A program made the translations under genes and the position numbers. The notes under the pieces were generated by a model. The model was given only the letters and a program-made list of their open reading frames with translations. It was not told the origin of the DNA and ran no database searches. Shown here in pieces: positions 1,652 to 22,978 of a stretch of 64,000 nt of DNA. Position 1 is the stretch's first letter, and each line of letters begins with the position of its first letter. The stretch comes from a candidate division FCPU426 bacterium (lineage in GTDB: Bacteria > Oederibacteriota > Muellerivitia > Muellerivitales > Muellerivitaceae): assembly GCA_963738405.1 (NCBI GenBank), contig CAVTWJ010000020.1, positions 64,453-128,452 of the forward strand, read 5' to 3'.

Positions 1652-1680
1652 TTGCCTGCCGATACCCCCCGTGCTAGAAT
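1652..1680 (+). promoter_or_regulatory. sigma70-type promoter for the skp-lpx operon
   Basis: TTGCCT-17bp-TAGAAT with an extended -10 TG; SD AAGGAG precedes ATG 1711. Confidence 0.55.
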
Positions 1681-1710
1681 CCAGCCTTAATTTTTTCACA
1701 AGGAGATTCC

Positions 1711-2229: not shown

Positions 2230-2251
2230 ACGGGGAGGGTAGGGATATTCC

Positions 2252-4593: not shown

Positions 4594-4596
4594 ACC

Positions 4597-5382
4597 ATGG
4601 CCGATCCGCAAACTGAAATTCACCCGACCGCCCTTGTTCACCCAAAGGCCCAGTTAGGATCGGGCGTGAAGGTGGGACCCTACGCCATCGTTGATGAACA
4701 TGTGAAAATAGGGGATGGAACCACGATTGGGCCCCATGCCATTGTTACAGGCAGGACCACCCTAGGGCGAAAAAACCGAGTTTTTTCCGGCGCGGTGATT
4801 GGAAGCGAACCCCAGGACGTGAAATTTCATGGGGAAGAAACCTTTCTGGTCATTGGCGATGAAAACCTCTTTCGGGAACATGTCACGGTCAACCCCGGGA
4901 CGGGAGAGGGCAGCAAGACGGTTATCGGCGACGACAATTGGTTTATGATTCAAACGCATGTGGGCCATAACTGCGTTATTGGAAGCCATAATAAGCTGGC
5001 GAATTTGGCCACCCTGGGAGGCCATGTGGTCATTGAAGACTATGCCACCATCGGGGGCGTGACCCCGGTTCATCAGTTCTGCCGGGTGGGTTGTTACGCC
5101 ATGATCGGCGGGGGATTCCGCGCCGTCCAAGACGTCGTTCCCTACATGATCGCCGGGGACGAACCTCTCAGAATCCATGGGATCAACCAGGTGGGTTTGG
5201 AACGCAACGGGTTTACGAAAGAAACGATCGAAGTTCTCAAGAAGGCCCATAAGGTCATTTTTCGAAACAACCTCATCCTGAAGGAGGCCCTAAAGGCCCT
5301 CCAAGAGGATTTTCCACAACTGCCTGAAATCAAGCACTTGATCGAATTCCTTGGCTCCTCCCAACGCGGCATTGTCCGTTAA
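4597..5382 (+). CDS. lpxA: UDP-N-acetylglucosamine acyltransferase
   Basis: IHPTALV, PQDVKF, HVGHNC, VHQFCRVG. Confidence 0.96.
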   Translation: MADPQTEIHPTALVHPKAQLGSGVKVGPYAIVDEHVKIGDGTTIGPHAIVTGRTTLGRKNRVFSGAVIGSEPQDVKFHGEETFLVIGDENLFREHVTVNPGTGEGSKTVIGDDNWFMIQTHVGHNCVIGSHNKLANLATLGGHVVIEDYATIGGVTPVHQFCRVGCYAMIGGGFRAVQDVVPYMIAGDEPLRIHGINQVGLERNGFTKETIEVLKKAHKVIFRNNLILKEALKALQEDFPQLPEIKHLIEFLGSSQRGIVR

Positions 5383-5385
5383 GCC

Positions 5386-6195
5386 GTGAAATCCATCGAA
5401 CCCATCGGTTTGGTCGCAGGAGCGGGCGGTCTTCCTCTTTACTTCGCGCAAGCGGCTCAAAAGAATGCCCAGCCCCTTTATCTGTTCGCAATCAAGAATG
5501 CGGCTGACCCCCGGCTAGAAGCTTTTTCCGAGGAAACCCGATGGGCTTCTCCCGGCCAGGTCGGATCCCTGATTTCCTTTTTTAAAATAAATAACGTCCA
5601 TCAATTGGTTTTTCACGGCAAGGTTCAACATGCGTCTTTTTTTAAAAACATCCGCTTGGATTGGAAAGGACTTTCTCTTTGGTCCAAATCGGCGGACAGG
5701 TCCGGGCCGGGATTGCTGAAAAGGCTTGGTGAGGAACTTGAAAAAGAAGGTCTGCGGGTTTTGGATGGCCGATACGAAATGGGTGATCTGTTGGTGAAAA
5801 AGGGATTTTTGACCCGAACCCGACCTCCGAAAAATGCAATTCCACATTTAGATAAAGGGCTTGGTCAAGCACGGGCCCTCGCCAAACTGGGGATTGGACA
5901 GTCCATTGTGATCAAATCCGGGGCTGTGGCGGCCGTGGAGGCCATGGAAGGCACGGACGAAACCCTTTTACGGGCGGGGAAATTGTCGGGCAAGGGAACG
6001 GTTTTGGTAAAGACGGCCAGCCCGAATCAAGATTGGCGCTTTGATGTTCCGACCATCGGGTTGGAGACCCTTCAAAATCTCGCGAAGATCAAAGCTTCGG
6101 GTTTGGTTATGGAAGCTGGAAGAAGCTTTCTTTTGGACAAAGAAAAAACCCTGCAATTTGCCGAGTCTAAAAAAATATTCATTTTTGCAGTCTGA
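5386..6195 (+). CDS. lpxI: UDP-2,3-diacylglucosamine pyrophosphatase LpxI
   Basis: GLVAGAGGLP, IGQSIV, AVEAMEGTD, QDWRFDVPTIG; lies downstream of lpxA. Confidence 0.9.
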   Translation: MKSIEPIGLVAGAGGLPLYFAQAAQKNAQPLYLFAIKNAADPRLEAFSEETRWASPGQVGSLISFFKINNVHQLVFHGKVQHASFFKNIRLDWKGLSLWSKSADRSGPGLLKRLGEELEKEGLRVLDGRYEMGDLLVKKGFLTRTRPPKNAIPHLDKGLGQARALAKLGIGQSIVIKSGAVAAVEAMEGTDETLLRAGKLSGKGTVLVKTASPNQDWRFDVPTIGLETLQNLAKIKASGLVMEAGRSFLLDKEKTLQFAESKKIFIFAV

Positions 6196-6270
6196 GAAAA
6201 ATCGGGTAAAAGTCAGTTTTGGGGAATTGGAAGAAGCCCTTTTTCTCTTAAGGGTTCCAACGGTATTCGG

Positions 6271-7359
6271 TTATTGGTTTCGCCTTAAGATCAGCACCGG
6301 TCCCATGATTCCAAAAACCAGATTGATGCTCCAAATCGCTATAAAGGGGGGGACCACCCCCGAGTCCCCGAGGGTGTGACCGATCTGCATCCCGCCGATG
6401 TAAGCCAGACCCACCAAAAGACAAATCCCGAAACTGGCAACCACCCCGCTGTATTTGCCCATGGACCAGCCCCATGGAACTCCCAGGAGAGCTAAGATCA
6501 AGCATCCGAATGGAAAGGCCAGCTTGTTGTGCAGTTCCACTAGTTCTTTGTGGCAATCCAATCCGTTGCGTTTCAATTGCTGAATATGGACGGCCAGCTC
6601 GGCGATGGATAATTCGGATGCGTCTTTTTGATCCTTCATGAAATCGGATGGTTTTTCGGGCAAATCCATCGAGGTTTGGTCGAAAGATTGCGCTGAAATT
6701 TCGTCATCGTTTCCGTTAAAGGTTCGAAGGTAGCCGTTTGTGAAAATCCATTTGCCGTCCTGGTAATGGGCGCTTGCCGCGTCAAGCCGTGATTTTAAGT
6801 GAGACGCGTTATCGAACTGAAGAATCAACACATCTGTCATTTGGTTCTTAGAACCATCGAAGGTGCCAATGTGGTAGAGGGCGTTTTCCCCGCCCCTGAG
6901 GGATAGGTTTTGTTTGAAGGTTTCCATGGAGGCTTCGGTTTTATGCTCAATCTCGACCTCTTTCGTTTGGCGCTCCATTTGATTGGCCTTCGGCACCACC
7001 ACTTCCGAAAAAAGAAGGCTGCCGATACAAATGGCGATTCCCATGAAGAAAAAGGGTATGGCGGCATGGTAGATGCTGGCCCCGCCGGCTCTCATGGCGA
7101 TCAGTTCGCTGGTTTTGGCCAAACCGCCCAGTGAGATAAGGACCGCGAAAAGAACGGCCAGGGGGAAAATCATCTGTATCAGCGATGGAACCTGGAAAAT
7201 GAAATATTTGAAAGTGAGCCAAAGGCCTGGGTGGGAATTCAGTATAAAGTTGATATCTTCCAATACTTTCGCGATCAAGATCAGAACCGTGAACCCGGTG
7301 AGCGCCAGGAAGAGCCAGATTAAAAATTGATGAAGGATATATCGGGTAAGGATTTTCAA
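6271..7359 (-). CDS. lptG: LPS export ABC permease LptG
   Basis: YjgP/YjgQ architecture, 'SELIAMRAGGAS', 'KLAFPFGCLILALLGVP'. Confidence 0.88.
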   Translation of the reverse strand: MKILTRYILHQFLIWLFLALTGFTVLILIAKVLEDINFILNSHPGLWLTFKYFIFQVPSLIQMIFPLAVLFAVLISLGGLAKTSELIAMRAGGASIYHAAIPFFFMGIAICIGSLLFSEVVVPKANQMERQTKEVEIEHKTEASMETFKQNLSLRGGENALYHIGTFDGSKNQMTDVLILQFDNASHLKSRLDAASAHYQDGKWIFTNGYLRTFNGNDDEISAQSFDQTSMDLPEKPSDFMKDQKDASELSIAELAVHIQQLKRNGLDCHKELVELHNKLAFPFGCLILALLGVPWGWSMGKYSGVVASFGICLLVGLAYIGGMQIGHTLGDSGVVPPFIAIWSINLVFGIMGPVLILRRNQ

Positions 7360-8527: not shown

Positions 8528-8876
8528 AAAGGCACCTTTGGAGGAAGGCTCTCGATAAAAAGGCGCCTTCGGAATTGGAAAAGAATTGAGCGGGCCCTCC
8601 AAGAGGGGTCTCGAAGGGCAGTATAACATGCCGCAAGGATGGTGAACCGGATGAGGAGTTAGGCGTCCATTCGGGGCCGCTATCCGACGAATGGGTCGAA
8701 GTCAGCGGTTCTGAACCCGAGAGCAAGATATGCTTATATTATGTGAAAAGCTGGCGGCTTAAATCCTATCGAGGAAACGCCGGGGGGTTGTTATGATTTT
8801 TGCTCGGCATCGAGGAGATATTCCGGTTCAATGGACCGTGAAACCGCGCTTTTATTTCAAGGGTCTGGAAGAGTTC

Positions 8877-10025
8877 ATGAGTGAAGCCTGGAACCGTTTT
8901 TTTTCTCTCGACTTTGAGGAGCATTTTGCCCGTTCCTCGCTGAGATTGCTGGGGGTTTGGAACCCCCTTTGGACTTTCTTCGTGGGGCTTTTTTGGGGGG
9001 AGTGGGAGTTAGGTTCTTTTTTATTCCGCTGGGTCTGGGGGTTGGCCGAATCAACACTCGCCACCCTTGTCGCTTTACTGGTCATGGCACTATTCCGCTG
9101 GGCGGACCGCCGGGGATGGTGGAAAGCCCTGCCTTTCTTGGGACATCCTGGGGGCGGGCGGTATCTCATCCTCATGGCGGCCCTGGTTCCGCCTGGAATT
9201 ATCCTGGCCCTGAGCGGAATGGTGGGGGCGATTAACCTGTTTTTTCCCGGGGATCCCATGGCCGCCCAATTCCACTGGGGCTATTACGGGAAGGGGGTTT
9301 TTGGCGGCTGGCTGTTGTTGCTGGTGTTTTTCCTTTTTAAATCCTGGCAGGACACGAGGGACGAGGCGAGGCTCAGTCAGTTGAGGGCCAGGGAATTGGA
9401 GAAAGAGCGTCTCCAAGCCCTATTGAACCAACTCAAGGATCAGATGAACCCGCATTTCCTCTTTAATACGCTCAACACGGTCGCGGCGCTGATTCCTGAA
9501 AATCCCGCCAAGGCGGAACTGGTGGTGGTGAAACTTTCAACCCTCTTTCAGGGCATATTGGCCTCAACCCGCAGGACCCACCATCCTCTCGCCAAGGAAT
9601 TGGAGTTTTGCGGGGATTACCTTGAGATTGAACAGGTTCGGTTTGGGACCCGATTGAATTGGAAGGTGGAGCTGGACCCGAATTTGGACGCTCAAAAAAT
9701 CGAGATTCCGGTGCTCTTACTTCAACCGATCGTCGAAAACGCCGTCAAACACGGCCTTTCCTCCCTAGCGGCGGGCGGGACGGTTTGGATCAAGGCTTTG
9801 ATCCATGAAGAATCATTGGAACTAACCGTTGAGGATGATGGCGTGGGTTTTGGGAAGTCGCCTTACTCAGGCTCCGGAACCGCCCTAGGCAATTGCCGTA
9901 AGCGGCTTGAACTCGCCTATGGCCCACAGGGCAGTTTGACGATTCAAACGAGGGAAAGCGGCGGCACCCAAGTAACAATGAAATTGCCCGCCTTATCCGC
10001 GGGAAAGTTTGGAGGGGAAATATGA
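8877..10025 (+). CDS. LytS/YehU-family membrane sensor histidine kinase
   Basis: Hydrophobic N-terminus, QMNPHFLFNTLN, LQPIVENAVKHG, VEDDGVG. Start is uncertain (8793 or 8877). Confidence 0.92.
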   Translation: MSEAWNRFFSLDFEEHFARSSLRLLGVWNPLWTFFVGLFWGEWELGSFLFRWVWGLAESTLATLVALLVMALFRWADRRGWWKALPFLGHPGGGRYLILMAALVPPGIILALSGMVGAINLFFPGDPMAAQFHWGYYGKGVFGGWLLLLVFFLFKSWQDTRDEARLSQLRARELEKERLQALLNQLKDQMNPHFLFNTLNTVAALIPENPAKAELVVVKLSTLFQGILASTRRTHHPLAKELEFCGDYLEIEQVRFGTRLNWKVELDPNLDAQKIEIPVLLLQPIVENAVKHGLSSLAAGGTVWIKALIHEESLELTVEDDGVGFGKSPYSGSGTALGNCRKRLELAYGPQGSLTIQTRESGGTQVTMKLPALSAGKFGGEI

Positions 10026-10771
10026 TTCGTGTTCTTTTAGTGGATGATGAGGCGCCTGCCCGCGCCCGGCTGGCGAGGCTCCTGGCGGATATTTCGGATA
10101 TACAGGTCGTGGGTGAATCTTCCAACGGCCTGGAGGCTCTGACGGCGGCCCAGGAACTCAAGCCGGATTTGGTGTTTCTGGATATTGAGATGCCCGAACT
10201 GAACGGCTTGGAAGTGGCCGAGACCTGGGCAGGGAACGGACCCGCGGTGGTTTTTGTGACCGCCTATACAGAACACGCCTTGAGGGCTTTCGAGGTTTCG
10301 GCCCTCGATTATTTGGTGAAACCCGTGGCATCCGAAAGATTATTGGAGGCTTTGGAAAAAGTGCGCAAGCAGAAGGCGCAACCGGGTTTGGAACAATTCC
10401 AATCTTTCTTGGAAAAATTCCAAGAGAAAAAAGTGAAGCGCCGTATGGCGATCAAATGCGGCTCCAAATACCGGGTTTTGGACCCGGAAAAGGTGACGGC
10501 TTTGGTGGCGAAGGACCATTACGCCGCCCTGTTGGTGGAAGGTCAGGAAATATTTTGCGACGACAGCTTGGATCATCTGGCTCAAAGACTGGATCCCTCC
10601 CGTTTTTTGAGGATTCACCGCGGAGCCGTGATCAATCTGGATTTTCTTAAGGAACTGGAGCATCAAGGGGACCGGAAATACTTGGCGGTCCTTTCCGATG
10701 TCGCTAAAACCAAGCTGCCCGTCAGCCGGGAAAGGCTGGACGAGTTAAAGGAAAGGCTGGGTCTTGGATAG
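10022..10771 (+). CDS. LytTR-family response regulator
   Basis: REC domain (VDDE, FLDIEMP, FVTAY, YLVKP) plus LytTR domain (FLRIHRGAVIN, LPVSRER). ATGA overlap with the kinase. Confidence 0.95.
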   Translation: MIRVLLVDDEAPARARLARLLADISDIQVVGESSNGLEALTAAQELKPDLVFLDIEMPELNGLEVAETWAGNGPAVVFVTAYTEHALRAFEVSALDYLVKPVASERLLEALEKVRKQKAQPGLEQFQSFLEKFQEKKVKRRMAIKCGSKYRVLDPEKVTALVAKDHYAALLVEGQEIFCDDSLDHLAQRLDPSRFLRIHRGAVINLDFLKELEHQGDRKYLAVLSDVAKTKLPVSRERLDELKERLGLG

Positions 10772-13700
10772 GATTTTTTTTTCTCATGGCTCCAGACCCT
10801 TCAAGTGGGCCCTGCTTATCTTTTTGGCGGTGGTTCCGCCGGGGTTTGCCCAAACCCCGATTTCAACCCCGGCCACACCTGATCCCAACTTAAAAACTTT
10901 AAGTCCAGGGGAAGAAATCCAGATTCTCCAAGCGATTGATTCCCAGAATAAGGGCTCGGGGTCAACGACCCTCGACCCTTCCGGCCCCATTACGACCGTG
11001 CAAAACCAAACCAGCCCGGTTTCCACTCCCGGGGCCGGTCAGCCGATCGCCTCGCCCGTTATTCCTTCATCAACCGTGACGGTCTCCGCTCCCGCAGGAC
11101 CGCCCCCGATTCCGACGGGTCTCAGTGTTTTGGTCCTAAAAGAAGGCGTTTATCTCGCGTGGGACGCGTCCTCTCCTTCCGCTAGCACGGTTTCTTACAA
11201 TGTTTACCGTTCGACAACCCCTGGTACGGGGTACCGGCAAATCAACCTGAGAACCCAGACTGCGCCCTATTTTCTCGACGGGGTCCCCTCCAGCAGTTCA
11301 CCCCCTAAAAACGGCGAGAATTATTTTTACGTAGTGGCGGGCGTAGATTCACAGGGGCGGTTAAGCGATTATTCGGATGAGGTTTTCGTTGCGCCCCTGG
11401 GAATGGAAATTCCCGAAACGGCGGAAGAAAAGGCCGAAGAGGCCAAAAATGGTGCCGTGACCGGGGCGCCTAAGGAAACGGAACAAGAACTCAATATCCC
11501 TGAGCAAAAAATCGTAAATCTACAGCTTCCGGCCGATACCCAGCTTTCCATTCAGGGCTATAAGAAGATCGAGGCCGATTTTTCGTTCCAACACTTCACC
11601 CACCCGCAGGGCAGCAGCGCGTCCGACAACAATACCACCCTGGTGAACCAGGAGATGGTTGTGAACTTGGAAGGGAAGGTTGGGAAAAATGTGGATGTGC
11701 ATGTCGACTACAGTGATGTCAACCGGGCGGGAGGGGTGGACCAAAGCAAACAGGAAATTTCAATCGTGTACCACGGTGAAAGCGACAGCCCAGTTCAGGA
11801 AGTGGCTTTTGGCGATTTGCAGATGAACCTTCCCAACACGGAATTCGCGGGTTTCAGCAAACAGCTTTTTGGGCTTCAGGCCAAGTTGAAATTTGATAAT
11901 TTCCGGGTCACCTCCTTTTTCGCCCAAACCAAAGGTATCGCGGAGACCCGGGTGTTCAACGGCAACACGGGGCAGGTGGATAAGGTTTTCAACGACATTG
12001 ATTACATCAGGGAAAGATATTTTCTGATTACCAAAGAATTCATTCCGAGCGTCAACGCGGGGGTCACCCAAAACCTGGCCCTGCCCCAGCCGAACAGCGA
12101 ACAAATTTGGGTCAATGCCGGGACGGGTCAGTCCGTTTTTGCCATTGGGAATAATTTTATCGGGCCCTATGAGCACTGGCTTCCGGGCCGGGACTACACC
12201 ATCGATTACAACACTGGCATCATTACCTTTATTAGGGCCTTATCGACCAGCGCCCAGATTGTGGTGGGCTTTACCAACAAGAATAACGTCAACCACGGCT
12301 TGAACGTTTATGGGACGACCCCCGCGAGCATCACTCCCATTTTAAGTAATTCCAATGATATTGCCCAATTCCAGGTTCCTCCAACAGGCATCATTGATGA
12401 TCCCAAATTCGCTCCCTTCGACATTTTGATCAAGAACAACAACAACACCACCAGTTCCCTTTATTTGGTGAATTATTTCGACTTGGGCCGGGACAAGATT
12501 ATTCCCCCCCAGCAAGACCCTAATTTCGTTTTTCAAGTCGTGGATCAGGGCACTAACAACGTGCTGCAGACCGGGCAGGGAGGTTTGGGAAGTTCTTCGG
12601 CACCCTGGGCCTTTGTCATGAATCAGGATTTCAACTACCTGGTGGTCAGCAATATGAACAACGCTAATGTGACTGTTTCCGCAGGGGTGACGGCCAATTT
12701 CGCGGAAAGGGCTTTCGTGGACCCCAACGTCGACCCCGCCCTTGGCACCTCCGCGAACGGCATTTACGATGAAGTGACGGTTCCCAACAGCCTCAAGCGG
12801 ATTCACTTGGTCTATAAAACCCAGCTCAATTATTTTCAGCTCAATCGATTTAACATTATCCGCGGTTCGGATACGGTCTTTTTGGACGGGCGAAGATTGC
12901 GCCGGGATGTGGATTACACTTTGGACTATACTTCGGGTTTTCTCGATTTTCCGGATAAAAGCATATTGCGCCCTGACAGCCAATTGGTGATTTCCTATGA
13001 ATACGCCCCTTTTGGTTCCTTTAACCAAAACAACATATTGGGAACTCGGATCGAATACGACGTCAACGATCACCTGTTTATTGGGTCCACCTTTTTGAAT
13101 TCCACAAGCCAACAACCCCAGGATATGCCTCAAATCGGCTCCACTCCTGATTCGCTGACGGTACTCGACGCGGATTTCAAATACGATTTAGGCCAAGATG
13201 ATTTGCAGAACATCACTGGTCTTATTCCCGGCCTTTCTGATTGGAAGCCGCCGGTGAGTGTCAAGATTTCCGGTGAAATTGCCGAAAGTTATTTCAATCC
13301 CGATACCTATAACATGCAGGGGGAACAAGGCGTTGCCATGGTCGATAACATGGAGGGCATCGATAATAACAGTGGGCCCAATATGAATTCGGCCAATTGG
13401 ATCGCCTCCTCCGAACCCCAACCGGTGGGCTTTTTGGGGAATACGACTTATGACAGCAGTGACACCCCGGCCAATAACCGTATCCGTTTCAGAAACGGCC
13501 CCGTCACTTTCGGGACAGCTCCTGTTACCTCAACTATACCTGGCGCGGGCGGCCATATTTTCGCCGGAGTTTTGGGTGGTTCGGGTACCAATAATGAACC
13601 GGACGCCATTCCAGTGCTTCAGGTGCCCTATGCCAATCTCACGAATCAGACCTGGGGGGGTGTCAGGCAGACCCTCTCTGCCACGGGCCTGGATCTTTCC

Positions 13701-16670
13701 AACACCAATTACATGCAGGCTTGGGTCTATAACGACGGCAACCCGAAGTGGATCATGATGGATTTTGGCGTCATGAGCGAAGCCAATAATGTGGACCAGA
13801 GCGAAGCAATCGAGGCGGAGCAGCTTCCCCTGACACCCGCGACGGATATAGGGCTTTTAACCAATTATTTCATCCCGGGAGGAGGCGTTTCACAAGTGGG
13901 AGGTTCCGGAATTTCGATCACTGACGAGCCCAATGGAACCCAGGAGGGAGCCAATAACAACATCCTCGACACGGAGGACACCAATGCCAACGGAATTTTA
14001 GATACCCAAGACGCCTATTACGAATATGGAATTCAAGCGAACTGGAAGGGATGGCAGATCGTCAAAATACCCGTTAATTTCACCCAGCCGGACGGCATCT
14101 ATCAGACGGATCAACAGGTGAATTATTTTTTTCACACCCAAAGCCCATTCGCGACTCCTTCCTTGATTCGGACGATTAGGTTTTGGATGACTGGACAATC
14201 GGCCGCTCCCACGAGCGGTTACGTTCTGTTTGAAAACATCCAATTCAACCGAAATCTCTGGCAGTTACAGGTCGACCCGACAGCCAATATCAATCAGGGG
14301 GTGACGGTTAATACCAGTAAATTTGACGTCAATTCCATTAGTCAGGACCAGGACCCGGGGTATGTTGCCACTGACCGGTTCATAGTTATTCCCCAAGGGA
14401 CGTCTGATTCTTCCATTCTCGCAAAAGAAAAAGCCCTAAAAATCACCTACAACCTTTCCTCCGCGGACTTTAATCCACCCGGTGACGTGTCCGGGGAACC
14501 CATTTATTACGCGACCCGCTATTTCAACCAGGGTGTGGATTTTACGGATTACTCAAACCTTGCCATGGATATTTATGTCCGGACCCCCAATGTCCAACCT
14601 GGTGAAATCCTTTTTATGCGTATAGGAAATGACCAACAGAATTATTACCAATACAACATGCCCCTTTTGTCCCAGTACGCGGGGGGATGGAATACCATTT
14701 CGGTGCACATCGACGGCTCGGACGGCAACCGACAGACCGTCGGCACCCCCTTCATTAACCGTGCAACCCAGATCAGTTTTGGCGTCCTTTCTCCCAATCC
14801 CCCCAACGGCCTGACAAAGGAAATTTGGATCAATAACCTGCGGACAAATAACCCGAACCAGAGGTCCGGCTTGGCCCGTCGTGCCAACGCCGCTTTTGTA
14901 CTTGGCAACAACTTTGCGACGGTTAATACCCGATACCGGGAGGTGGACTCGGGTTTCACCCAAATCGACCAAACTTCAAATCATTTTCAACATTCCACTC
15001 AATATGGGGTGGACTATACTTCTAACGCAGTAAGCGTTTTTGGGCAGCCCTTGGCGACCCAAATGTCCTACACCAACCAAGACAACTACACCGAAGCGGC
15101 TCTTCTGCAAAACCCCTATTACAGCGCTTTGCCCCATACCCAATCGGAAAATACAACGGGGTCCATTACCTATACAAAAGACTTAGGAGCCGCTTGGGGC
15201 CGTTTGACGAATGTTCGTGTCTCCGAAAGCACCTACTCGGAGAACGACACCTACCAATCCGCATACCTTTCTCAGCCTGGCATTCAGGGGGACACACAAA
15301 AAGGGAATCAAACCTATACGGTTGCCTCTACCTACGACGCTCCCACCCAACTGTTCGGTTTTCCGGTTGGTTCCAACCAATTTTCGGAGACGGATATCCT
15401 AACCATCGATACTCAAAACTTTTCCAATTCCTCTCAGCCCCTTGTGCCCTACAGTCGAACCACAAAAAATCAGACCTACGGCTGGACCAACACCACCGAA
15501 ATATTCAAGAACCTCATTTTTACGCCGGGATATAACCTAAATCTGGTGGACGCAGTGGGGAACACGAATTCGCCTGGCGTGGCCGGTAGCGTGACTCAAT
15601 TCACCAATTTCCAGGAAAGGGACCAGCCCAAGGGAGGGTTAACCTACCGGGGAATTCCCGGGGTCATACCGGCTGTGAACTATACCGGTTCGGAGCAGAT
15701 TGACAATGTCAGCTACACGGAGGGTCCCCGGCTCAACAATTCCAACAGCATCAATTATTCCCTGAATCTTTCTCCGTCACTTTGGTGGGATCCCTTCCAA
15801 AAGATTGGGTTGACGGCCTTTGCGGGCCGAACGGAAAGCGCGTCAGCGGCGATCCCCAATTTCCGGGCGGTCCGACCCTTGAGTTTTCAGGAGATATGGC
15901 TGATCGCCCCGCCGAACGATATCGCCTTGAATTCGACCAAATCCCTTACCGATCAGATCAATTTCAGTTTCAGGCTTTTTGATTTCTGGGACTTCAAACC
16001 CACGGGGTCCTGGACCACCCAGTTCAACCTGTTGTCGGCCGGAACCAACCCGGTGGAACAAGACAGTGATACCCTTGGTTTTACAACCGTCTTCAACCAT
16101 AAACTCGCCACTTTGCCTTACCTAAACTTTGGGTTGGATTCCGCCCAATTCCAGTACACCCGCACCGATTCAACGCAATGGGACACCCAAAGCCCGCCCC
16201 AGATTTCAGGCCAGACGACCAATGAAACCTATTCTTTTACGGTTCCCTACGACATCGCCCAATTAGCCACTGGGAATTTTCATTATCAGCATATGGACGG
16301 TTTTACCAACACCAGCGGTATTCTGACGACCCAGTTGGATGACCAAGCCTCGGTGGAGTACAACCAAAAATTTCTCGAAAACACAATTCTGCACATTCCC
16401 TTTACCCATTGGAAAATAAAATTTGATCAGGCGATCGAATTGCGCCTCGTGTTTTTGACGGAGATCGTGAATAACGAAAGCCCGGCCTACCAGCTCAACG
16501 ATCTTCAGACCGAAAGGTATCGTGGTACACTCACGTTGAATTACAACGCTTTGAAGAATTTAAGGGTCGGCTTGGGCGGGGTCTACGAGGTATTTGACGA
16601 GGACAAACCCTATCAATACTTAAGTTACGACATGTGGCAGATTAATATTTCCGGCGAAGCGAGATTTTAA
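10764..16670 (+). CDS. sprA: SprA-like giant outer-membrane beta-barrel (T9SS translocon homolog) with N-terminal Fn3 domain
   Basis: Signal peptide. SprA-type segments include 'VVNLEGKVG...ISIVYHGESDSPVQEVAFGDLQMNLP..FAGFSKQLFGLQAKLKF', two 'GSD/E.V...DYT(I/L)DY..G' repeats, 'ILGTRIEYDVNDHLFIGSTFLN' and DTEDTNANGILD. The long beta-strand C-terminus ends in Phe. Confidence 0.8.
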   Translation: MDRIFFSHGSRPFKWALLIFLAVVPPGFAQTPISTPATPDPNLKTLSPGEEIQILQAIDSQNKGSGSTTLDPSGPITTVQNQTSPVSTPGAGQPIASPVIPSSTVTVSAPAGPPPIPTGLSVLVLKEGVYLAWDASSPSASTVSYNVYRSTTPGTGYRQINLRTQTAPYFLDGVPSSSSPPKNGENYFYVVAGVDSQGRLSDYSDEVFVAPLGMEIPETAEEKAEEAKNGAVTGAPKETEQELNIPEQKIVNLQLPADTQLSIQGYKKIEADFSFQHFTHPQGSSASDNNTTLVNQEMVVNLEGKVGKNVDVHVDYSDVNRAGGVDQSKQEISIVYHGESDSPVQEVAFGDLQMNLPNTEFAGFSKQLFGLQAKLKFDNFRVTSFFAQTKGIAETRVFNGNTGQVDKVFNDIDYIRERYFLITKEFIPSVNAGVTQNLALPQPNSEQIWVNAGTGQSVFAIGNNFIGPYEHWLPGRDYTIDYNTGIITFIRALSTSAQIVVGFTNKNNVNHGLNVYGTTPASITPILSNSNDIAQFQVPPTGIIDDPKFAPFDILIKNNNNTTSSLYLVNYFDLGRDKIIPPQQDPNFVFQVVDQGTNNVLQTGQGGLGSSSAPWAFVMNQDFNYLVVSNMNNANVTVSAGVTANFAERAFVDPNVDPALGTSANGIYDEVTVPNSLKRIHLVYKTQLNYFQLNRFNIIRGSDTVFLDGRRLRRDVDYTLDYTSGFLDFPDKSILRPDSQLVISYEYAPFGSFNQNNILGTRIEYDVNDHLFIGSTFLNSTSQQPQDMPQIGSTPDSLTVLDADFKYDLGQDDLQNITGLIPGLSDWKPPVSVKISGEIAESYFNPDTYNMQGEQGVAMVDNMEGIDNNSGPNMNSANWIASSEPQPVGFLGNTTYDSSDTPANNRIRFRNGPVTFGTAPVTSTIPGAGGHIFAGVLGGSGTNNEPDAIPVLQVPYANLTNQTWGGVRQTLSATGLDLSNTNYMQAWVYNDGNPKWIMMDFGVMSEANNVDQSEAIEAEQLPLTPATDIGLLTNYFIPGGGVSQVGGSGISITDEPNGTQEGANNNILDTEDTNANGILDTQDAYYEYGIQANWKGWQIVKIPVNFTQPDGIYQTDQQVNYFFHTQSPFATPSLIRTIRFWMTGQSAAPTSGYVLFENIQFNRNLWQLQVDPTANINQGVTVNTSKFDVNSISQDQDPGYVATDRFIVIPQGTSDSSILAKEKALKITYNLSSADFNPPGDVSGEPIYYATRYFNQGVDFTDYSNLAMDIYVRTPNVQPGEILFMRIGNDQQNYYQYNMPLLSQYAGGWNTISVHIDGSDGNRQTVGTPFINRATQISFGVLSPNPPNGLTKEIWINNLRTNNPNQRSGLARRANAAFVLGNNFATVNTRYREVDSGFTQIDQTSNHFQHSTQYGVDYTSNAVSVFGQPLATQMSYTNQDNYTEAALLQNPYYSALPHTQSENTTGSITYTKDLGAAWGRLTNVRVSESTYSENDTYQSAYLSQPGIQGDTQKGNQTYTVASTYDAPTQLFGFPVGSNQFSETDILTIDTQNFSNSSQPLVPYSRTTKNQTYGWTNTTEIFKNLIFTPGYNLNLVDAVGNTNSPGVAGSVTQFTNFQERDQPKGGLTYRGIPGVIPAVNYTGSEQIDNVSYTEGPRLNNSNSINYSLNLSPSLWWDPFQKIGLTAFAGRTESASAAIPNFRAVRPLSFQEIWLIAPPNDIALNSTKSLTDQINFSFRLFDFWDFKPTGSWTTQFNLLSAGTNPVEQDSDTLGFTTVFNHKLATLPYLNFGLDSAQFQYTRTDSTQWDTQSPPQISGQTTNETYSFTVPYDIAQLATGNFHYQHMDGFTNTSGILTTQLDDQASVEYNQKFLENTILHIPFTHWKIKFDQAIELRLVFLTEIVNNESPAYQLNDLQTERYRGTLTLNYNALKNLRVGLGGVYEVFDEDKPYQYLSYDMWQINISGEARF

Positions 16671-16671
16671 G

Positions 16672-19600
16672 ATGGCTTTTTCACTGGGAAAGGGAAGGGG
16701 ATATGAAGTGATGGGGCGTAAACGAAATCTACTTACCGCGAATGCGGCCCTTTGGGTGGCGCTTTTGGCCCATTTTGGACAGTGCCAATCCCTTCCCGCC
16801 CCGACAGGTCTTGCGGCAACTCCTGGAAACGGGGTGGTCAATCTATATTGGAACCCTCTGCCATCGGCCACGGCCTTTTTCATTTATCGGGACGAATATG
16901 GAACACCGACCTATAGCTTTACCCCAACGCCCAGTTTTACCCCTACTTTTACGGGTTCGCCAACCGATGCGACGACCGACACGACGACCCCGACCTATTC
17001 TCCGACCGGAACTCCCACTCCGCTGGCCACGGTTTTGGCCTCGGGCCAAGCTTCCTTAACCGATTTTCAGGTAGTGAATGGTGATTCCTATGTTTATACC
17101 GTCTTGGGGTTAGATTCTTCCGGTAATTTAGGCGCTCCCGCCACAACGGTCGTTAACCCTTTCGCGCCGCCCCAGGCCATCTCAACTTTAACCGTCCAGC
17201 CGCTCCATGCAGGGGCTTTGGATCTTTCCTGGCCTCTCCCTCTTTCTTCATACCCTGTGACAGGTTACGCCATCTATCGCTTGGCCATCACCTTTACTCC
17301 GAATCCATCGGGCACGCCTACGCCCACACCCAGCTTTACTCCAACGCCCTCTTATACCCCGACCGTCACCTTTTCCCCGACCCTTACCCTGCCCGCAGGA
17401 ACCTATACCTCCACCCCTGGCAATACCTATACCTTTACCAATACCTTTACCCCCACCATAACTTCATCGCCAACGCCCAGCTTTACCCCCACCGCAACTT
17501 TTGAACCGACGCGCATACTTGCTTCGGATGTTATTTCCCAAGGGGCATTGATCGGAAATTCCTCAGGCACATCTTTTTCGGACCAGCCTCAGCCCTTGGG
17601 CCCAGGGGAATATTATTACGTGGCAATCGCGGAAGACGCGAACGGTAACCCCGGGGCTATCCCAACCTATTCCAGCATTCCTAATTGCCCTCAATTGTCA
17701 AAACCCTTTGCCCCGGCCTTGTCGGGGAATTTAATCTTATCGGTTACCCCGACGCCCACCAATGGAATGCTTTATGGGGTTAGGCTTCAATGGACGGGAC
17801 CCTTGGCTTCGGAAGGAGTGACGGCTTACCAGGTGTTTGCAAACGGAACGCCCCTTGCGACGGTGGTGGTCAGCCCAACGCCTCAGGTGACCTGTGTTTA
17901 TGACGATCAAAGCGTCCCCTATTCAGCAAGCCAGGCCAACCAAACCCAATACTCGGTAGCGGCGGTTAACGGTAATGGGGCGGTGACATCCAATTCCATT
18001 TCAGAAAATATTTATGAGCCTATTCTTTATGGGCCGATCCAAGTCACCCCGGTAGCTGCCGCCAATAACGTCACCATCAGTTGGAATCAGGCCCTGCCGG
18101 GGACCTATGGACTGGCCGGGTATCAAATATTCAAAAGCTCAAACGGTATCCCTGGGACAGGCACCCAATCACCCACTCCCTTGCCCATGGCCAATATTGG
18201 CATTACGCCGGGAGTCACGCCGACTTTGGTTTATGTGGATTCGCCCGTTACCAACGCCTGGGGGCTCAGTTATTGGGTTCAGCCCTATGCGGCCGTGACA
18301 ACCGGAGGTGTTTTTGCGGGGGCGACACCCTCTTTATTAGATATCGGCCCTACTCCTGTCGCGACGGTATCCGTTGCGGTAACCACTGGAAACAATGCAT
18401 TCGCGGTGACTTGGTCTGGGGCTGAAACCGGTTTTTACGGAACTCCGGTGGCTTACAAGGTCTACCGGGAATACACAAACGCCTCCAGCCCCACGCCGGT
18501 GGCGACAGTGTCTTATTCCCAAACAAACTATACCGATTACGCGAATGGGGTTTCCCTGAGCACCAGCATGAACTATCAGGTATCGGTTTTGGATCATTTA
18601 GGAAATCCATCCGATCTTTCACCATTTTCTAATGCTGTGGTTTCATCCTCCGCTTCCGCGCCGGGTCTTCCCTTGCAGCCCTTTGGGTTGCCGGTGCTGG
18701 GTGGCCCCATTACTCTGACTTATTCCTGGCTGTTGAACCCTCTTTCGGACGGGGTAACGGCTTACAACCTATATGGGCCTGATTATTTAACTCCAGCCCC
18801 CAACACCCCTACGCCCGTGGCTATCTATGCCCCAACCACCACTCCCACCTTTGAGGTTCCGGCCACGCCTTGGGCGGTGAATAACTATTATGTCGTGGCG
18901 CAGAATCAAACAGGGAATAGCACGCCCACGAACCTTTCAAGCCTTGCCGTATCCCAATACTCGGTTTCGGCGGGTGTTCCTGTTCCGACCCAGGCCGTGA
19001 CCCTCTCCTGGAATTTTACCGTACCTACGACTACCCCGGCGCCTCTTGATAGCTTTGATGTTTACCGATCGGTGACCCAGGGGTCGCAGTTTACTTCTCT
19101 GGCGGTTGTTCCTTATCCAACCATGGTTTATACGGACAATACGGCTTCGGCGGGCCAATCCTTTTATTACCGGGTAACCGCAAGGTCAAACGGGGTTGAA
19201 AGCTCTTTGTTTCCCGACATGACACCGGCACCCGAGGCAGGGGCCTTTACTTGGCCCAACGCTCCGGCCAGCCTATTGGCCAATGGGGCGGTTTCTGAAA
19301 CTACTCTTACCTGGGTTTCTAACCCTGTAACAGAAGGAGTGCAATTTTATACGGTGTACCAAAACGGAACGCCTGTCGCCACGGTGACTCCGGCGCCTGT
19401 TTCGGTCCTTAATTCGGTAACCGTTCCTGATTTTCCGGGCGCTGGAACGGGATATCAGGTTGTGGCTCAAAGTCCAGAGGGCAATTCATCAGCGGCCCCG
19501 GCTTCCGTTTTGCTTTCTTTTAGTTCGGGGCCGATCCTCGACCTGACGCCCCCTCCAGGATTTACCCCGACGCCTAATGTCACCCCAGCTTATCCACCGG

Positions 19601-21471
19601 GCGTCTGGGTTTCGGGCTTCACTTTTAGTTCAAATCCGGCTGACGGCGGAGTGAATTCCTATACCATTTATCGAAGCATTAATCCTACACCCACCTCCAC
19701 CTGCGTGACTTGTTGGAGCAATGTAGGTTCTGTTTCTGCGCCGACCTCTTTAACCGCTGCCACGCCCGTATTTGTGGATACAAACGCAGTCAGTGGCTTT
19801 ACCAATTACTACCAGATCGTTCCCCAGAATGGTTTCGGATTGCAGGGAAATCCCAATCCGCAAACCGGGGTTTCAATCACTTATTTTCCAGCCGCTCCCG
19901 CAAGCTTTATAGCTCAACCCTCTGCATCTGCCATCAGCCTGGCCTGGGCTCCGGTCGGAAATGCTCCCGTGACCGGTTACGACATTTATCGAAGCACGGC
20001 TGCTTTCGCCCATATGACCCAACTAGCGGGCCAACTGGCCGTAACAACCTATACCGATAACGCTGTGACTTATGGTTCAGCCTATTTTTATTGGGTGGAT
20101 GCGGGAGCCCAAGGGGTTACCAGCGCTCCGGCCAGCGTGACCGCCCTAGCTGTATCCGCGCCCACCCTCTTTTTAACACCTGGCGCCGCCATGAATAACT
20201 TGGCCTGGAACCCGGTCGAGGTGCCCACCGGAAGCCCTGTGTCGGGCTATTCCATCCAAAGCGAGACCTTTCCCGCTACACCGGTTCCCAGTCAGACTCC
20301 AGGATTCACTCCCATCGGTCCCGCCATTGTGGAAGGATTGAATAACACGACCTATGCCGACACAAGCGTGTCCGATCCCAATTCTTACGCCTACCAGGTC
20401 GCTGTAGCGGCACCCAATCCCTGGGGAGGAAGACCCATTTTGGGACCCTTTTCCAACCCGGTGAGCGTGATAGTGTTGCCTTTGCCGGTCGCCAATTTGG
20501 AGGCGGTGTCTGGAGATGGCTTGGTTCAATTGCGTTGGAACTACCAAGGCAACCAAAAATTTACTTATACCATTCAACGAAAGTTGGGTTCGGCTCCTGT
20601 TTCGGCTTATCAAACCATCAAATCCGGGTTTCAAGGCATCAATTACACCGACACGGGAGTTTTGAATAAAACACTTTATGATTACCAGATTTATAGCGTG
20701 GATGCCTCGGGATTGTCCTCCTCCGCCGCGATGGTTCAGGCCCTGCCCGCCGAGCCGCCCTATGTTGGAAACACAAAAGTATCTCTCGCTCAAAGTCAGC
20801 AGGGGGATCAAACGGGGAATCAATTGACTTGGGCTCCAGCAAATAACCCCGCCACTTATCCATACTTTGATCCGACCAAAATGTATCCCTTGGGAGGATA
20901 TTATGTTTATCGGTCTTCCGATGGGGGGGGGACTTACCAGTTGGTTACGGTGGTGCCAAGTTCCCAGGGAACTACCCAAACCTCTATTAGCTATTTTGAT
21001 CCGGTTCAACTGGTAAACGGTTCGGCCTATACCTATTTGGTCTGGGCTTTTGACCAACCGGCGGGCGTGAATACGAGTGAAGTCAATATGGTTCACGAGA
21101 CGCCCTATACCCCCATAACTGCTTTTCCATTGACGGCTGGGGCGGCGCTGGATCGTAATGCAATAAGGCCCAATGGCGCTTTGGATGAACAGTCCGTCGG
21201 GATACGGTTTGTGGTGACAAGTCCAGGTAAGGTGGAAATAAAAGTTTATTCCCTGTCGGGGACTTTTATCAAAACTATCTTAAGTGACCCTAATGTTCGT
21301 GTTGGAGTTTGGGGCACCTATCGCATTAATGGAACCTTGAATGACAGTGACTATCATGCTTCCTGGGACGCGCGCAATATGCAGGGGAATCTGGTCGCGT
21401 CAGGTGTCTATCTGATAACGGTGGAAATGAACGGGCACCAAGAAATTGATAAAGTGGCAGTTATTAAGTAA
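16672..21471 (+). CDS. Large secreted Fn3-repeat, Thr/Pro-rich protein with C-terminal FlgD-Ig/T9SS-CTD-like domain
   Basis: Signal peptide and many 'L.W...Y.IYR...YTD...Y.Y.V.A' Fn3 units. C-terminus reads 'NAIRPNG...VEIKVYSLSGTFIKTI...WDARNMQGNLVASGVYLI...KVAVIK'. Start is 16672 or 16711. Confidence 0.85.
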   Translation: MAFSLGKGRGYEVMGRKRNLLTANAALWVALLAHFGQCQSLPAPTGLAATPGNGVVNLYWNPLPSATAFFIYRDEYGTPTYSFTPTPSFTPTFTGSPTDATTDTTTPTYSPTGTPTPLATVLASGQASLTDFQVVNGDSYVYTVLGLDSSGNLGAPATTVVNPFAPPQAISTLTVQPLHAGALDLSWPLPLSSYPVTGYAIYRLAITFTPNPSGTPTPTPSFTPTPSYTPTVTFSPTLTLPAGTYTSTPGNTYTFTNTFTPTITSSPTPSFTPTATFEPTRILASDVISQGALIGNSSGTSFSDQPQPLGPGEYYYVAIAEDANGNPGAIPTYSSIPNCPQLSKPFAPALSGNLILSVTPTPTNGMLYGVRLQWTGPLASEGVTAYQVFANGTPLATVVVSPTPQVTCVYDDQSVPYSASQANQTQYSVAAVNGNGAVTSNSISENIYEPILYGPIQVTPVAAANNVTISWNQALPGTYGLAGYQIFKSSNGIPGTGTQSPTPLPMANIGITPGVTPTLVYVDSPVTNAWGLSYWVQPYAAVTTGGVFAGATPSLLDIGPTPVATVSVAVTTGNNAFAVTWSGAETGFYGTPVAYKVYREYTNASSPTPVATVSYSQTNYTDYANGVSLSTSMNYQVSVLDHLGNPSDLSPFSNAVVSSSASAPGLPLQPFGLPVLGGPITLTYSWLLNPLSDGVTAYNLYGPDYLTPAPNTPTPVAIYAPTTTPTFEVPATPWAVNNYYVVAQNQTGNSTPTNLSSLAVSQYSVSAGVPVPTQAVTLSWNFTVPTTTPAPLDSFDVYRSVTQGSQFTSLAVVPYPTMVYTDNTASAGQSFYYRVTARSNGVESSLFPDMTPAPEAGAFTWPNAPASLLANGAVSETTLTWVSNPVTEGVQFYTVYQNGTPVATVTPAPVSVLNSVTVPDFPGAGTGYQVVAQSPEGNSSAAPASVLLSFSSGPILDLTPPPGFTPTPNVTPAYPPGVWVSGFTFSSNPADGGVNSYTIYRSINPTPTSTCVTCWSNVGSVSAPTSLTAATPVFVDTNAVSGFTNYYQIVPQNGFGLQGNPNPQTGVSITYFPAAPASFIAQPSASAISLAWAPVGNAPVTGYDIYRSTAAFAHMTQLAGQLAVTTYTDNAVTYGSAYFYWVDAGAQGVTSAPASVTALAVSAPTLFLTPGAAMNNLAWNPVEVPTGSPVSGYSIQSETFPATPVPSQTPGFTPIGPAIVEGLNNTTYADTSVSDPNSYAYQVAVAAPNPWGGRPILGPFSNPVSVIVLPLPVANLEAVSGDGLVQLRWNYQGNQKFTYTIQRKLGSAPVSAYQTIKSGFQGINYTDTGVLNKTLYDYQIYSVDASGLSSSAAMVQALPAEPPYVGNTKVSLAQSQQGDQTGNQLTWAPANNPATYPYFDPTKMYPLGGYYVYRSSDGGGTYQLVTVVPSSQGTTQTSISYFDPVQLVNGSAYTYLVWAFDQPAGVNTSEVNMVHETPYTPITAFPLTAGAALDRNAIRPNGALDEQSVGIRFVVTSPGKVEIKVYSLSGTFIKTILSDPNVRVGVWGTYRINGTLNDSDYHASWDARNMQGNLVASGVYLITVEMNGHQEIDKVAVIK

Positions 21472-21500: not shown

Positions 21501-22208
21501 TTGAGCACCCCGCTCTGGAATAAAAAGTTAAAGTGCCCTTTTTGCGCGTTTGAATTTGAGACGACCCGGTTACGTTCCTCCGTCATCAAGATTAAGGAAA
21601 AACAAACTGATTTCGGAAACGTCTATGATGGGGAATGCGCCTATCTGTATGCCGTTACGGTTTGTCCCCAATGCACCTTTGCGGCTTTAAATAAGGATTT
21701 TGATACCGTCCGCGCCGGGGCCGAGCCAATGATTATGGAAGTCTGCCGGCAGATAAGCCAATCGGCCAAAAAGAAACCTGAAATCTTCGCCTTAGGATCC
21801 TCCACGCCCGAAGTGGCCATTAAACGGCATGAAATGGCTATCACCTTCATGAAGATACGAAAATATGGGGATTTAAGTACCCTGGCGGGTTTGTCCCTTC
21901 ATTTGGTCTGGATATACCGGTTGATGCAGGATTACGACAATGAAAAACGGGCCTTGGCTCAGGCAGCTAAAGCCTACGAGGAATATTTTGACAAGGGAAG
22001 CCGGTTGCCGGAAAACCTGGGCGAGCCTGGGGTGCTTTATTTAATTGGCGAATTGTACCGGCGGCAGGGCTTATTTAAAGAAGCCAGACGTTTTTATGAA
22101 AGGGCATTGGCCAGCAAGGAAATTAAAGCCTTTCCCCGCATCGCTGAAATGACGAGGGATATGATGTTTGCCGCGAAGCAGCAAATGGAAATGACAGGTA
22201 CGGATTAG
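21501..22208 (+). CDS. DUF2225-family protein (Zn-ribbon + TPR)
   Basis: CPFC...TDF...Y.VTVCPQC.FAA and 'LYLIGELYRRQG..EARRFY'. Confidence 0.8.
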   Translation: MSTPLWNKKLKCPFCAFEFETTRLRSSVIKIKEKQTDFGNVYDGECAYLYAVTVCPQCTFAALNKDFDTVRAGAEPMIMEVCRQISQSAKKKPEIFALGSSTPEVAIKRHEMAITFMKIRKYGDLSTLAGLSLHLVWIYRLMQDYDNEKRALAQAAKAYEEYFDKGSRLPENLGEPGVLYLIGELYRRQGLFKEARRFYERALASKEIKAFPRIAEMTRDMMFAAKQQMEMTGTD

Positions 22209-22213
22209 TCCCT

Positions 22214-22978
22214 TTGCGGGGGATCGTCTTGAACTCATGGAAACCTTTCAAATCAATATCTAAAGCGTTAATTGACAATCTTTTCCCAAAGCTGTGTGAA
22301 TATTGCGGTTTGACATTTGAAGAAGGTTTTTCGAATGTCCTGTGTGGTTCCTGCTTTCGTTCCATGCCGCACTACCGAGATCCGGTTTGCTCCCACTGTG
22401 GTGAATCCTTGGAACCGGGAAGTTTTGAGGGTGCGTTACTATTCCGTTGCGTGGAATGTGGAGAGGGAGCCTATTTTTTAGACCAGGTTCGGACCTTTGG
22501 GGAATATGTTGGAGCCTTGAGATTGCTCCATCACGCGTTTAAGTTTGAAGGGATGGAACATTTAGGGTTGGCTATAGCTGAAAGAATGGCGAATAACATT
22601 CCAGCGGGGTTCCTACAACCTGAAACCATCTTATGCCCTGTTCCTTTGAGCCCAGAGCGGGAAAGGGAACGGGGATATAATCCGTCCGAAAATTTATGCC
22701 GTCATCTTTCCGACGGAAAAGGTGTTCACTGGGAAAATCTCTTAAGAAAAATGAAGTCGATTCCACCCCAGATGTCGTTGACGCGTAAGGAGAGATTAAT
22801 GAACCCTGTGGGTGCCTATGAAGTATTGAGGGGAAAGGCCGTGCCGGTTCGAGTTGTATTGGTTGATGATGTCTTTACCACTGGGGCAACGCTGGAAGAG
22901 TGCGCAAAAATATTGAAACAATCTGGCTGCCAATGGGTTGGTGCTGTTCTTTGGGGTCGGACACCACGTTATTTTTGA
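22214..22978 (+). CDS. comF: ComF/GntX family phosphoribosyltransferase-like protein
   Basis: Double zinc ribbon, PVPLS..RERERGYN, VLVDDVFTTGATL. Confidence 0.9.
   Translation: MRGIVLNSWKPFKSISKALIDNLFPKLCEYCGLTFEEGFSNVLCGSCFRSMPHYRDPVCSHCGESLEPGSFEGALLFRCVECGEGAYFLDQVRTFGEYVGALRLLHHAFKFEGMEHLGLAIAERMANNIPAGFLQPETILCPVPLSPERERERGYNPSENLCRHLSDGKGVHWENLLRKMKSIPPQMSLTRKERLMNPVGAYEVLRGKAVPVRVVLVDDVFTTGATLEECAKILKQSGCQWVGAVLWGRTPRYF

Follow-up and report, generated by a model that had tools for sequence, protein, structure and literature searches.

A shortened SprA-like translocon homologue encoded beside a giant Fn3-repeat protein with a borderline type A sorting domain

The outer-membrane translocon of type IX secretion systems (T9SS), called SprA in Flavobacterium johnsoniae and Sov in Porphyromonas gingivalis (PDB entries 6H3I, 6H3J, 8GL6 and 8GL8), is a single-chain, 36-strand barrel that is capped on its extracellular side and opens laterally. 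To our knowledge, no single-chain outer-membrane barrel is larger, and studies of it have been confined to Bacteroidota. A homologue of this protein is described here from a 64,000-nucleotide stretch of contig CAVTWJ010000020.1, referred to as "the window". It is 1968 amino acids (aa) long, and its gene is followed by that of a 1599-aa protein (the "giant") that consists largely of fibronectin type III-like (Fn3) modules and ends in an immunoglobulin (Ig)-like domain. The preliminary description of the window had placed the two open reading frames (ORFs) at 10764-16670 and 16672-21471 with a gap of 1 nucleotide (nt), and this is where they are found.

Three other known systems are comparable to parts of this locus. 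FlgD is the flagellar hook-cap protein, and its Ig-like domain (PF13860; 3C12, 7EH9) is the one that the giant's tail matches best, both in Pfam and by sequence in the PDB. Here, in contrast, the domain is the terminal module of an Fn3 giant predicted to be exported by Sec and encoded beside a secretion pore, and a Pfam scan of the window ORFs showed no flagellar genes near the pair. In two-partner secretion, the gene of a barrel (TpsB) adjoins that of a giant repetitive exoprotein (TpsA), and the present pair, probably co-transcribed, resembles this arrangement by analogy. It differs in that its barrel is a SprA-family protein, the barrel gene comes first and the putative signal is C-terminal instead of N-terminal; neither protein has POTRA/ShlB or two-partner secretion domain matches in Pfam or NCBIfam. 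The type A C-terminal domains (CTDs) of T9SS proteins such as RgpB, PorZ, PorU and RemA resemble the giant's tail in their C-terminal position, their length of about 90-115 aa and their Ig-like β-sandwich, which for the tail is a prediction. According to passages in PMC11285876 and PMC10994853, two residues are important for the function of type A CTDs: a Gly where strand 4 begins and a Lys close to the C-terminus that is nearly invariant.

A scan of a species-representative genome collection with the SprA-like protein gave 15 loci (numbered L001 onwards), all from metagenome-assembled genomes (MAGs); 13 of these loci encode a SprA-like protein that shares 44-75% identity with the one in the window. 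The latter scores 238.1 bits (E 1.4e-70) against the NCBIfam model TIGR04189 ("T9SS outer membrane translocon Sov/SprA"), which has a curated equivalog cut-off of 200 bits, and all 15 aligned members of the SprA-like clade match the same model (best E 8.1e-75). A profile of the clade finds F. johnsoniae SprA (6h3i/6h3j) in the PDB with E 3e-28, profile residues 259-1375 corresponding to residues 152-1555 of the chain. Alignment to 14 canonical SprA sequences with hhalign has a probability of 100% and E 2e-62 over 1092 columns, the identity in the aligned part being about 19-21%. When a more global alignment is made, high per-window confidence is confined to residues 251-1400. The Pfam scan of the window protein gave no match, with no SprA_N (PF14349) at E ≤ 0.1, and SprA_N was found in two of the 15 clade members (E ≤ 0.01); the PF14349 region is still homologous to canonical SprA by profile-profile comparison. 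A database search returned 36 relatives of 44-77% identity, mostly 1820-2045 aa long and several of them shorter fragments, beyond which there is a sharp fall to canonical SprA proteins of 2300-2500 aa (E 1e-49 to 1e-7).

Judged by these alignments and by the predicted fold described below, the 1968-aa protein is a true SprA/Sov homologue, strongly divergent and shortened. It is a divergent member of the family and not a new kind of protein, because a curated model already recognises it above the cut-off. The preliminary description had likewise proposed a SprA homologue shorter than that of Flavobacterium, and both points are borne out. Among the searches for which it had called were two with SprA models, of which TIGR04189 supported the assignment and SprA_N did not. 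The motifs that it quoted (NLEGKVGKNVDV..., VQEVAFGD..., FSKQLFG, DTEDTNANGILD and the terminal ...GEARF) are present in the translation, and DYTxDYxxG occurs twice, around residue 477 (about 12.2 kb) and around residue 717 (about 12.9 kb). With 36 relatives, a curated SprA model passed and both genes recurring in order in related genomes, the observation is far beyond chance.

The likeness to SprA/Sov also includes a probable signal peptide, a terminal aromatic residue and a predicted, very large single-chain barrel with long strands. The N-terminal part is different. Its 250 residues comprise a low-complexity linker and then an Fn3-like domain, both preceded by a signal peptide that was recognised by eye; profile positions 97-196 of the clade match PDB entry 3mpc, an "Fn3-like protein", with E 8.5e-6. 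A hidden Markov model (HMM) of the Fn3 modules of the neighbouring giant matches the N-terminal domain of four SprA-like proteins (L001, L004, L006 and L009) with E values of 7.6e-11 to 1e-6, whereas the window's own protein has no match at E ≤ 0.01. Apart from the giants and these four N-termini, no other ORF of the window or the loci is matched by this HMM. The linker and the Fn3 domain take the place of the SkpA-binding N-terminus of canonical SprA, which is undetectable here, residues 1-250 aligning to canonical residues 2-163 with a mean confidence of only 0.2-1.3 out of 9. The canonical N-terminus is described, in a section of PMC10994853, as folded inside the SkpA chamber and highly conserved.

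An AlphaFold (AF2) model was calculated for residues 769-1968 (1200 of 1968) from a 36-row alignment and has a mean pLDDT of 81 and a pTM of 0.47. The last 615 residues of the model (584-1198) form 26 strands, each 10-19 residues long. The top four Foldseek matches are the SprA chains 8gl8_A, 8gl6_A, 6h3i_A and 6h3j_A (E 3.4e-38 to 1.1e-31, TMq 0.46-0.48), and the next match is MtrB with E 3e-5. The C-terminal 1200 residues are therefore predicted to have a SprA-like fold, and this extends into the last 520 or so residues, for which there is no confident sequence alignment to canonical SprA. The structure prediction that the preliminary description had proposed thus covers residues 769-1968, with 26 long strands in the last 615 residues of the model.

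The SprA-like clade is about 430 aa smaller than canonical SprA. The shortening is spread across many small deletions, and the C-terminal region is about 280 residues shorter than in canonical SprA. A quick maximum-likelihood tree of 26 rows and 1668 columns gives the clade a branch of 1.2 changes per column and joins it to the long branch of L014 and L015 (about 2020 aa), together with the protein P0039, apart from the canonical proteins. This join is uncertain because two long branches meet there. L014 and L015 form a second clade of short SprA-like proteins, from MAGs titled "bacterium" and "Nitrospira sp.", and neither protein matches Pfam SprA_N. Literature searches found no description of the clade to which the window protein belongs, which does not prove that none exists.

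Thr, Pro, Ser and Ala are abundant in the giant, and charged residues are scarce. A jackhmmer analysis of seven full-length orthologues gave 13-14 tandem modules in each, with about 100 residues per module. Curated Fn3 models match the giant weakly (fn3_4, E 0.0059; PelI Fn3 region, E 4.7e-4). From its sequence, the giant is probably a secreted cargo or a surface protein.

The tail of the giant, that is, its last 115 or so residues, is conserved in all eight full orthologues and in each of them ends at the last residue of the protein. The motifs given for it earlier (NAIRPNG...IKVYSLSG...WDARN...VASGVY...KVAVIK) are present in the translation. The T9SS model TIGR04183 is matched by the eight orthologue tails (E ≤ 1; best E 6.9e-6), and the tail of the window, scanned alone, scores 22.2 bits (E 1e-4) against a cut-off of 23. 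All eight also match the NCBIfam models for the C-terminal ends of PorZ and PorU, as well as FlgD models. In Pfam, FlgD_ig is found in eight of the eight tails, Por_Secre_tail (PF18962) in seven and CHU_C in four; the window tail has 15.9 bits on PF18962, the cut-off being 27, and prefers FlgD_ig to Por_Secre_tail. In the alignment of the orthologue tails, a Gly in "L-x-G-T", which follows the third predicted strand, and a Lys in the last strand, five residues before the C-terminal end, are both invariant; they correspond to the two residues described for type A CTDs.

The AF2 model of the last 230 residues of the giant has a pLDDT of 87.8 and is all-β, with two β-sandwich domains. A fold search with this model retrieved generic tandem Ig/Fn3 structures, among which PorU was at rank 5 and PorZ at rank 24. 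In a language-model atlas, the tail adjoins clusters in which FlgD_ig and Por_Secre_tail are mixed (scores of 0.93-0.95), which is taken as a lead only. When the orthologue tail profile was run against a library of 1.84 billion proteins, 51,838 representative proteins were matched at E ≤ 0.001, many having 5-21 internal tandem copies. By sequence, the tail domain appears to fall where FlgD_ig meets the T9SS type A sorting domain. The earlier assignment as a T9SS CTD or FlgD-like Ig domain thus holds for a terminal Ig-like domain with type A matches at borderline scores, but its T9SS specificity does not, in view of the number of proteins matched. Short proteins with the same tail were considered as independent cargoes, and the seven that were inspected (189-712 aa) among the full-length single C-terminal matches were all fragments or orthologues of the giant; another candidate, P0281, has internal Ig repeats and is subtilase-like and unrelated.

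The two genes are closely linked in related genomes. The giant directly follows the SprA-like gene in all ten loci with downstream DNA (37-65% identity), so that the tight adjacency reported earlier is upheld beyond the window. The spacing is 0-3 nt, or the genes overlap, in nine of these ten loci and is 155 nt in the remaining one, which suggests translational coupling, beyond mere neighbourhood. In the distant locus L014, where the SprA-like protein is 23% identical to that of the window, a CHU_C / Por_Secre_tail domain is found at the end of the ORF that lies upstream of the SprA-like gene, and its CHU_C score is 32.4 bits, above the cut-off of 27. By these sequence matches, L014 is an independent second case of a predicted CTD protein encoded beside a short SprA-like gene. 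In L007 (9860-15848 and 2120-3467), the SprA-like gene, lpxC-fabZ, gap and tpi are each divided into two to four consecutive ORF pieces; these look like frameshift errors of the assembly rather than gene decay, because many unrelated genes are affected.

Upstream of the pair are the genes of a LytS-type sensor histidine kinase and a LytTR-family response regulator (Table 1). They overlap by 4 nt, and the stop of the regulator gene overlaps the start of the SprA-like gene by 8 nt. NCBIfam matches of the regulator to BtsR/LytR-like models fall under the cut-offs. Of the 12 loci with upstream DNA, ten have the kinase-regulator pair, and L009 and L011 lack it. Kinase, regulator, SprA-like gene and giant are probably co-transcribed. 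Between positions 8500 and 23400, ten sigma-70-like promoter matches were found, compared with 12.6 ± 3.1 in shuffled sequences, and terminators were likewise not above shuffles, so the operon structure is deduced from the spacing. A DUF2225/TPR gene, the presence of which confirms an earlier assignment, lies between the giant and a comF-like gene in the window and in its closest relative, L012; in the other loci, comF directly follows the giant. The comF-like gene is found downstream of the pair in L001, L002, L004, L011 and L012.

Further upstream are skp, lpxD, a fused lpxC-fabZ, lpxA and lpxI, with lptG/lptF on the opposite strand; gap, nfeD, an SPFH gene, pgk and tpi are downstream. The whole block, from lpxD, lpxC/fabZ, lpxA and lpxI through lptGF, the kinase-regulator pair, the SprA-like gene, the giant and comF to gap, nfeD, SPFH, pgk and tpi, is syntenic in L001-L007 and L012. 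Because these surroundings carry lpx, lpt and other envelope genes, the host is a diderm with lipopolysaccharide.

Relatives of the SprA-like protein, of Tgt and of LpxC-FabZ bear labels such as "bacterium", "uncultured bacterium" or "Proteobacteria bacterium", and the few named relatives of the SprA-like protein are entered as "hypothetical protein [bacterium]". The LpxC-FabZ fusion is retained in the whole lineage, with at least 52% identity, and is 44-48% identical to outside matches, which are also fused; one of the nearest outside relatives is named Candidatus Cloacimonetes. A passage of PMC516016 describes an LpxC-FabZ fusion in Chlorobium. The fusion might serve as a rare-event marker for placing the lineage. 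There are weak hints that the host is in or near the Fibrobacteres-Chlorobi-Bacteroidetes (FCB) group but outside Bacteroidota. The "non-Bacteroidota" host of the preliminary description is plausible. The argument that it drew from TTGACA/TATAAT promoters is not supported, sigma-70-like matches being no commoner than in shuffles. Shine-Dalgarno-like motifs precede 18 of the 37 chosen starts in the window. No PilZ match was seen among window ORFs of at least 150 aa, shorter ORFs not having been scanned, and an Rfam scan of the window found tRNA-Glu and no rRNA or other marker RNA. Since T9SS genes are reported in several non-Bacteroidota FCB phyla, as stated in part of PMC11285876, a T9SS component outside Bacteroidota is not new in itself.

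Some other proteins of the window appear to be secreted. A right-handed β-helix (NosD-like) protein, of which the C-terminal end is encoded at the edge of the window, finishes with a stretch rich in Lys and then about 20 hydrophobic residues (...KKQKPSSAIKILAVGATAVVTVVLLFL) and has no T9SS-type domain there; this sequence hints at another route of C-terminal anchoring or sorting in this organism. Two CBM9-like and CarboxypepD_reg-like proteins of 979 and 783 aa have no recognisable C-terminal sorting domain. Three of the five signal peptides recognised by eye would expose an N-terminal Gln on cleavage (...GFA/QTP, ...HFG/QCQ and ...LHA/QTP, the slash marking the cleavage site). This recalls the "Q-rule" of Bacteroidetes, as outlined in a portion of PMC5837995, the sample being too small for a conclusion. 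At 48788-51969 (+), the gene of a FecR-domain (LipL45/Lsa33-like) protein precedes those of a 389-aa protein with the end ...AGFKW and of a probable lipoprotein of 350 aa; at 52080-52946 (-) there is a 288-aa protein ending ...SVEMGF. With their aromatic ends, the 389-aa and 288-aa proteins look like outer-membrane barrels. Both (49754-50923 and 52080-52946) were considered as PorV/PorP candidates and have no Pfam, NCBIfam or PDB match.

Table 1. Coordinates of features in the window and in two distant loci; a slash marks a predicted signal peptide cleavage site
Feature	Position	Strand	Remarks
Right-handed β-helix (NosD-like) protein, C-terminal end	1-693	+	No T9SS-type terminal domain
Fused LpxC-FabZ	3286-4593	+	435 aa; NCBIfam PRK13188, 445 bits (cut-off 465)
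LytS-type sensor histidine kinase	8793-10025	+	PF06580, E 3.3e-23; PF02518 (HATPase_c), E 8.9e-11; first gene of apparent operon
LytTR-family response regulator	10022-10771	+	Pfam Response_reg, E 1.1e-22; LytTR, E 7.9e-20
SprA/Sov-family outer-membrane translocon homologue	10764-16670	+	1968 aa; TTG start; no Cys; C-terminal Phe (...GEARF)
Probable Sec signal peptide of SprA-like protein	10764-10850	+	Residues 1-29; ...VVPPGFA/QTPIS; read by eye; N-terminal Gln
N-terminal Fn3-like domain of SprA-like protein	11103-11393	+	About residues 114-210
Region with sequence-detectable homology to canonical SprA	11520-14987	+	Residues 253-1408, template 153-1546 (hhalign)
C-terminal barrel region	14988-16667	+	Residues 1409-1968; SprA-like by predicted structure
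Giant Fn3-repeat protein	16672-21471	+	1599 aa; N-terminal hydrophobic leader (read by eye)
Signal peptide of giant	16672-16790		Read by eye; N-terminal Gln
Tandem Fn3-like modules	16801-21138	+	14 matches; residues 44-1489
C-terminal Ig-like domain, FlgD_ig / T9SS type A CTD kind	21124-21468	+	Residues 1485-1599; ends ...DKVAVIK
DUF2225 / TPR protein	21501-22208	+	Pfam DUF2225, E 9.1e-39; 29 nt downstream of giant
ComF-family phosphoribosyltransferase-like protein	22214-22978	+	TIGR00201, E 7.3e-24, below cut-off; 5 nt after DUF2225
CBM9-like + CarboxypepD_reg-like secreted-looking protein	34708-37647	+	979 aa
CBM9-like + CarboxypepD_reg-like secreted-looking protein	54356-56707	+	783 aa
Signal peptide of 783-aa protein	54356-54450		Read by eye; N-terminal Gln
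CTD-bearing ORF of L014	2-586 (L014)	+	Upstream of L014 SprA-like gene
Short SprA-like protein, second clade	991-7050 (L014)	+	2017-2019 aa for the two; 23-24% identical to that of the window
Short SprA-like protein, second clade	163-6216 (L015)	+	As for L014

The interpretation favoured here, with a probability of about 0.6, is that the giant is the substrate of the SprA-like barrel, or one of its substrates, and is a surface adhesin that carries a type A-like CTD and is co-expressed with the barrel under LytTR control. Support for it comes from the family membership of the barrel, its SprA-like predicted C-terminal fold, the domain type and terminal position of the tail and the conserved tight linkage of the two genes. 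Both proteins would cross the inner membrane via Sec, and the SprA-like protein would form a very large barrel in the outer membrane. The giant would then be recognised by its C-terminal Ig-like, type A CTD-like domain, acting as the export signal, and would reach the cell surface by way of the barrel; there, its approximately 13 Fn3 modules may serve as an adhesin or a surface layer. The LytTR pair would regulate this process, and a PorV-like carrier and an energy source would be encoded elsewhere in the genome.

Several observations weigh against this interpretation. No GldK, GldL, GldM, GldN, PorV, PorU, PorP/SprF or SprE/PorW is recognisable among the scanned window ORFs of at least 150 aa, as the preliminary description had already noted for gldKLMN and porV. 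The tail is confined to the giants among the 814 ORFs (at least 80 aa) of the window and the 15 loci, and the β-helix protein and the two CBM9-like proteins, all three apparently secreted, lack it. The tail of the window is just under the cut-off of TIGR04183 and under the Pfam gathering cut-offs, and the best PDB sequence match of the tail profile is flagellar FlgD (E 4.7e-5). The fold search cannot separate a T9SS CTD from FlgD, because its matches are generic Ig/Fn3 structures, and the many thousands of proteins found with the tail profile indicate that this type of domain is a widespread Ig module, not specific to secretion. Lastly, the conserved adjacency of the two genes may reflect relatedness and not function, since the region from lpxD to tpi is syntenic.

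If adjacency is merely a matter of descent, the barrel could be the general translocon of an ordinary, complete T9SS in an FCB-related lineage, in which gldKLMN, porV, porU and many CTD cargoes are encoded elsewhere and the giant is one cargo that lies beside the barrel gene by chance. The genes of known T9SSs are dispersed. The synteny of the block in L001-L007 and L012, the occurrence of T9SS in other FCB phyla, and the LpxC-FabZ fusion shared with Chlorobium and with relatives that include Cloacimonetes are all in line with such a system. However, the 814 ORFs of the window and its related loci include no second CTD-bearing protein, three apparently secreted proteins of the window lack the tail, the close spacing of the pair suggests translational coupling, and the SkpA-binding N-terminus of the canonical extended translocon is undetectable. 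An ordinary T9SS is on balance unlikely, though still plausible.

The missing SkpA-binding N-terminus can also be read in another way, namely that the giant serves the barrel as a structural partner, for example as a scaffold in the periplasm or on the surface, replacing accessory subunits such as SprE/PorW, SkpA or cap-associated proteins, with a tail that is a plain FlgD-like binding Ig domain. The Fn3 domain at the N-terminus of the barrel, which in at least four orthologues is of the same kind as the giant's modules, would fit this role, as would the FlgD match and the predominance of non-terminal tandem Ig arrays among the proteins found with the tail profile. Such a scaffold is nevertheless very unlikely, given that the tail is at the exact C-terminus, has the conserved Gly and the penultimate-strand Lys of type A CTDs, and matches TIGR04183 and the PorZ and PorU terminal domains in eight of eight orthologues. 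Thr/Pro-rich linkers and some 13 Fn3 modules are, moreover, typical of extended surface proteins. The lack of any other recognisable T9SS gene in the window, together with the single-cargo pattern, might instead mean that the barrel and a dedicated Fn3 substrate are a self-contained pair, working like two-partner secretion without a GldLM motor, a GldKN ring or PorV, in a lineage devoid of other T9SS parts. The shortened barrel with its altered N-terminus, and the position of the clade on a long separate branch with another clade of about 2020 aa, agree with this. Absence from 64 kb, however, says little about a genome of several Mb, and known SprA, according to an extract of PMC10994853, needs PorV and the proton-motive force for substrate release; a pair of this kind is very unlikely indeed. 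It is quite unlikely that, in a lineage without GldLM, GldKN and PorV, the shortened barrel with its Fn3 N-terminus exports one giant under LytTR control as a minimal, possibly ancestral, motor-independent type IX translocon of two-partner-like design.

A natural SprA variant about 20% shorter than the canonical protein and without the SkpA-binding N-terminus could reveal which parts of the translocon are dispensable. This variant, whose gene is coupled to those of a single giant substrate-like protein and a two-component regulator, would offer a simple translocon-cargo pair for studying CTD recognition. If the genome has a full T9SS, the locus is a useful but unsurprising extension of the known range of the family. 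If the remaining machinery is truly absent, the pair would bear on the origin of type IX secretion and on its reach beyond Bacteroidota.

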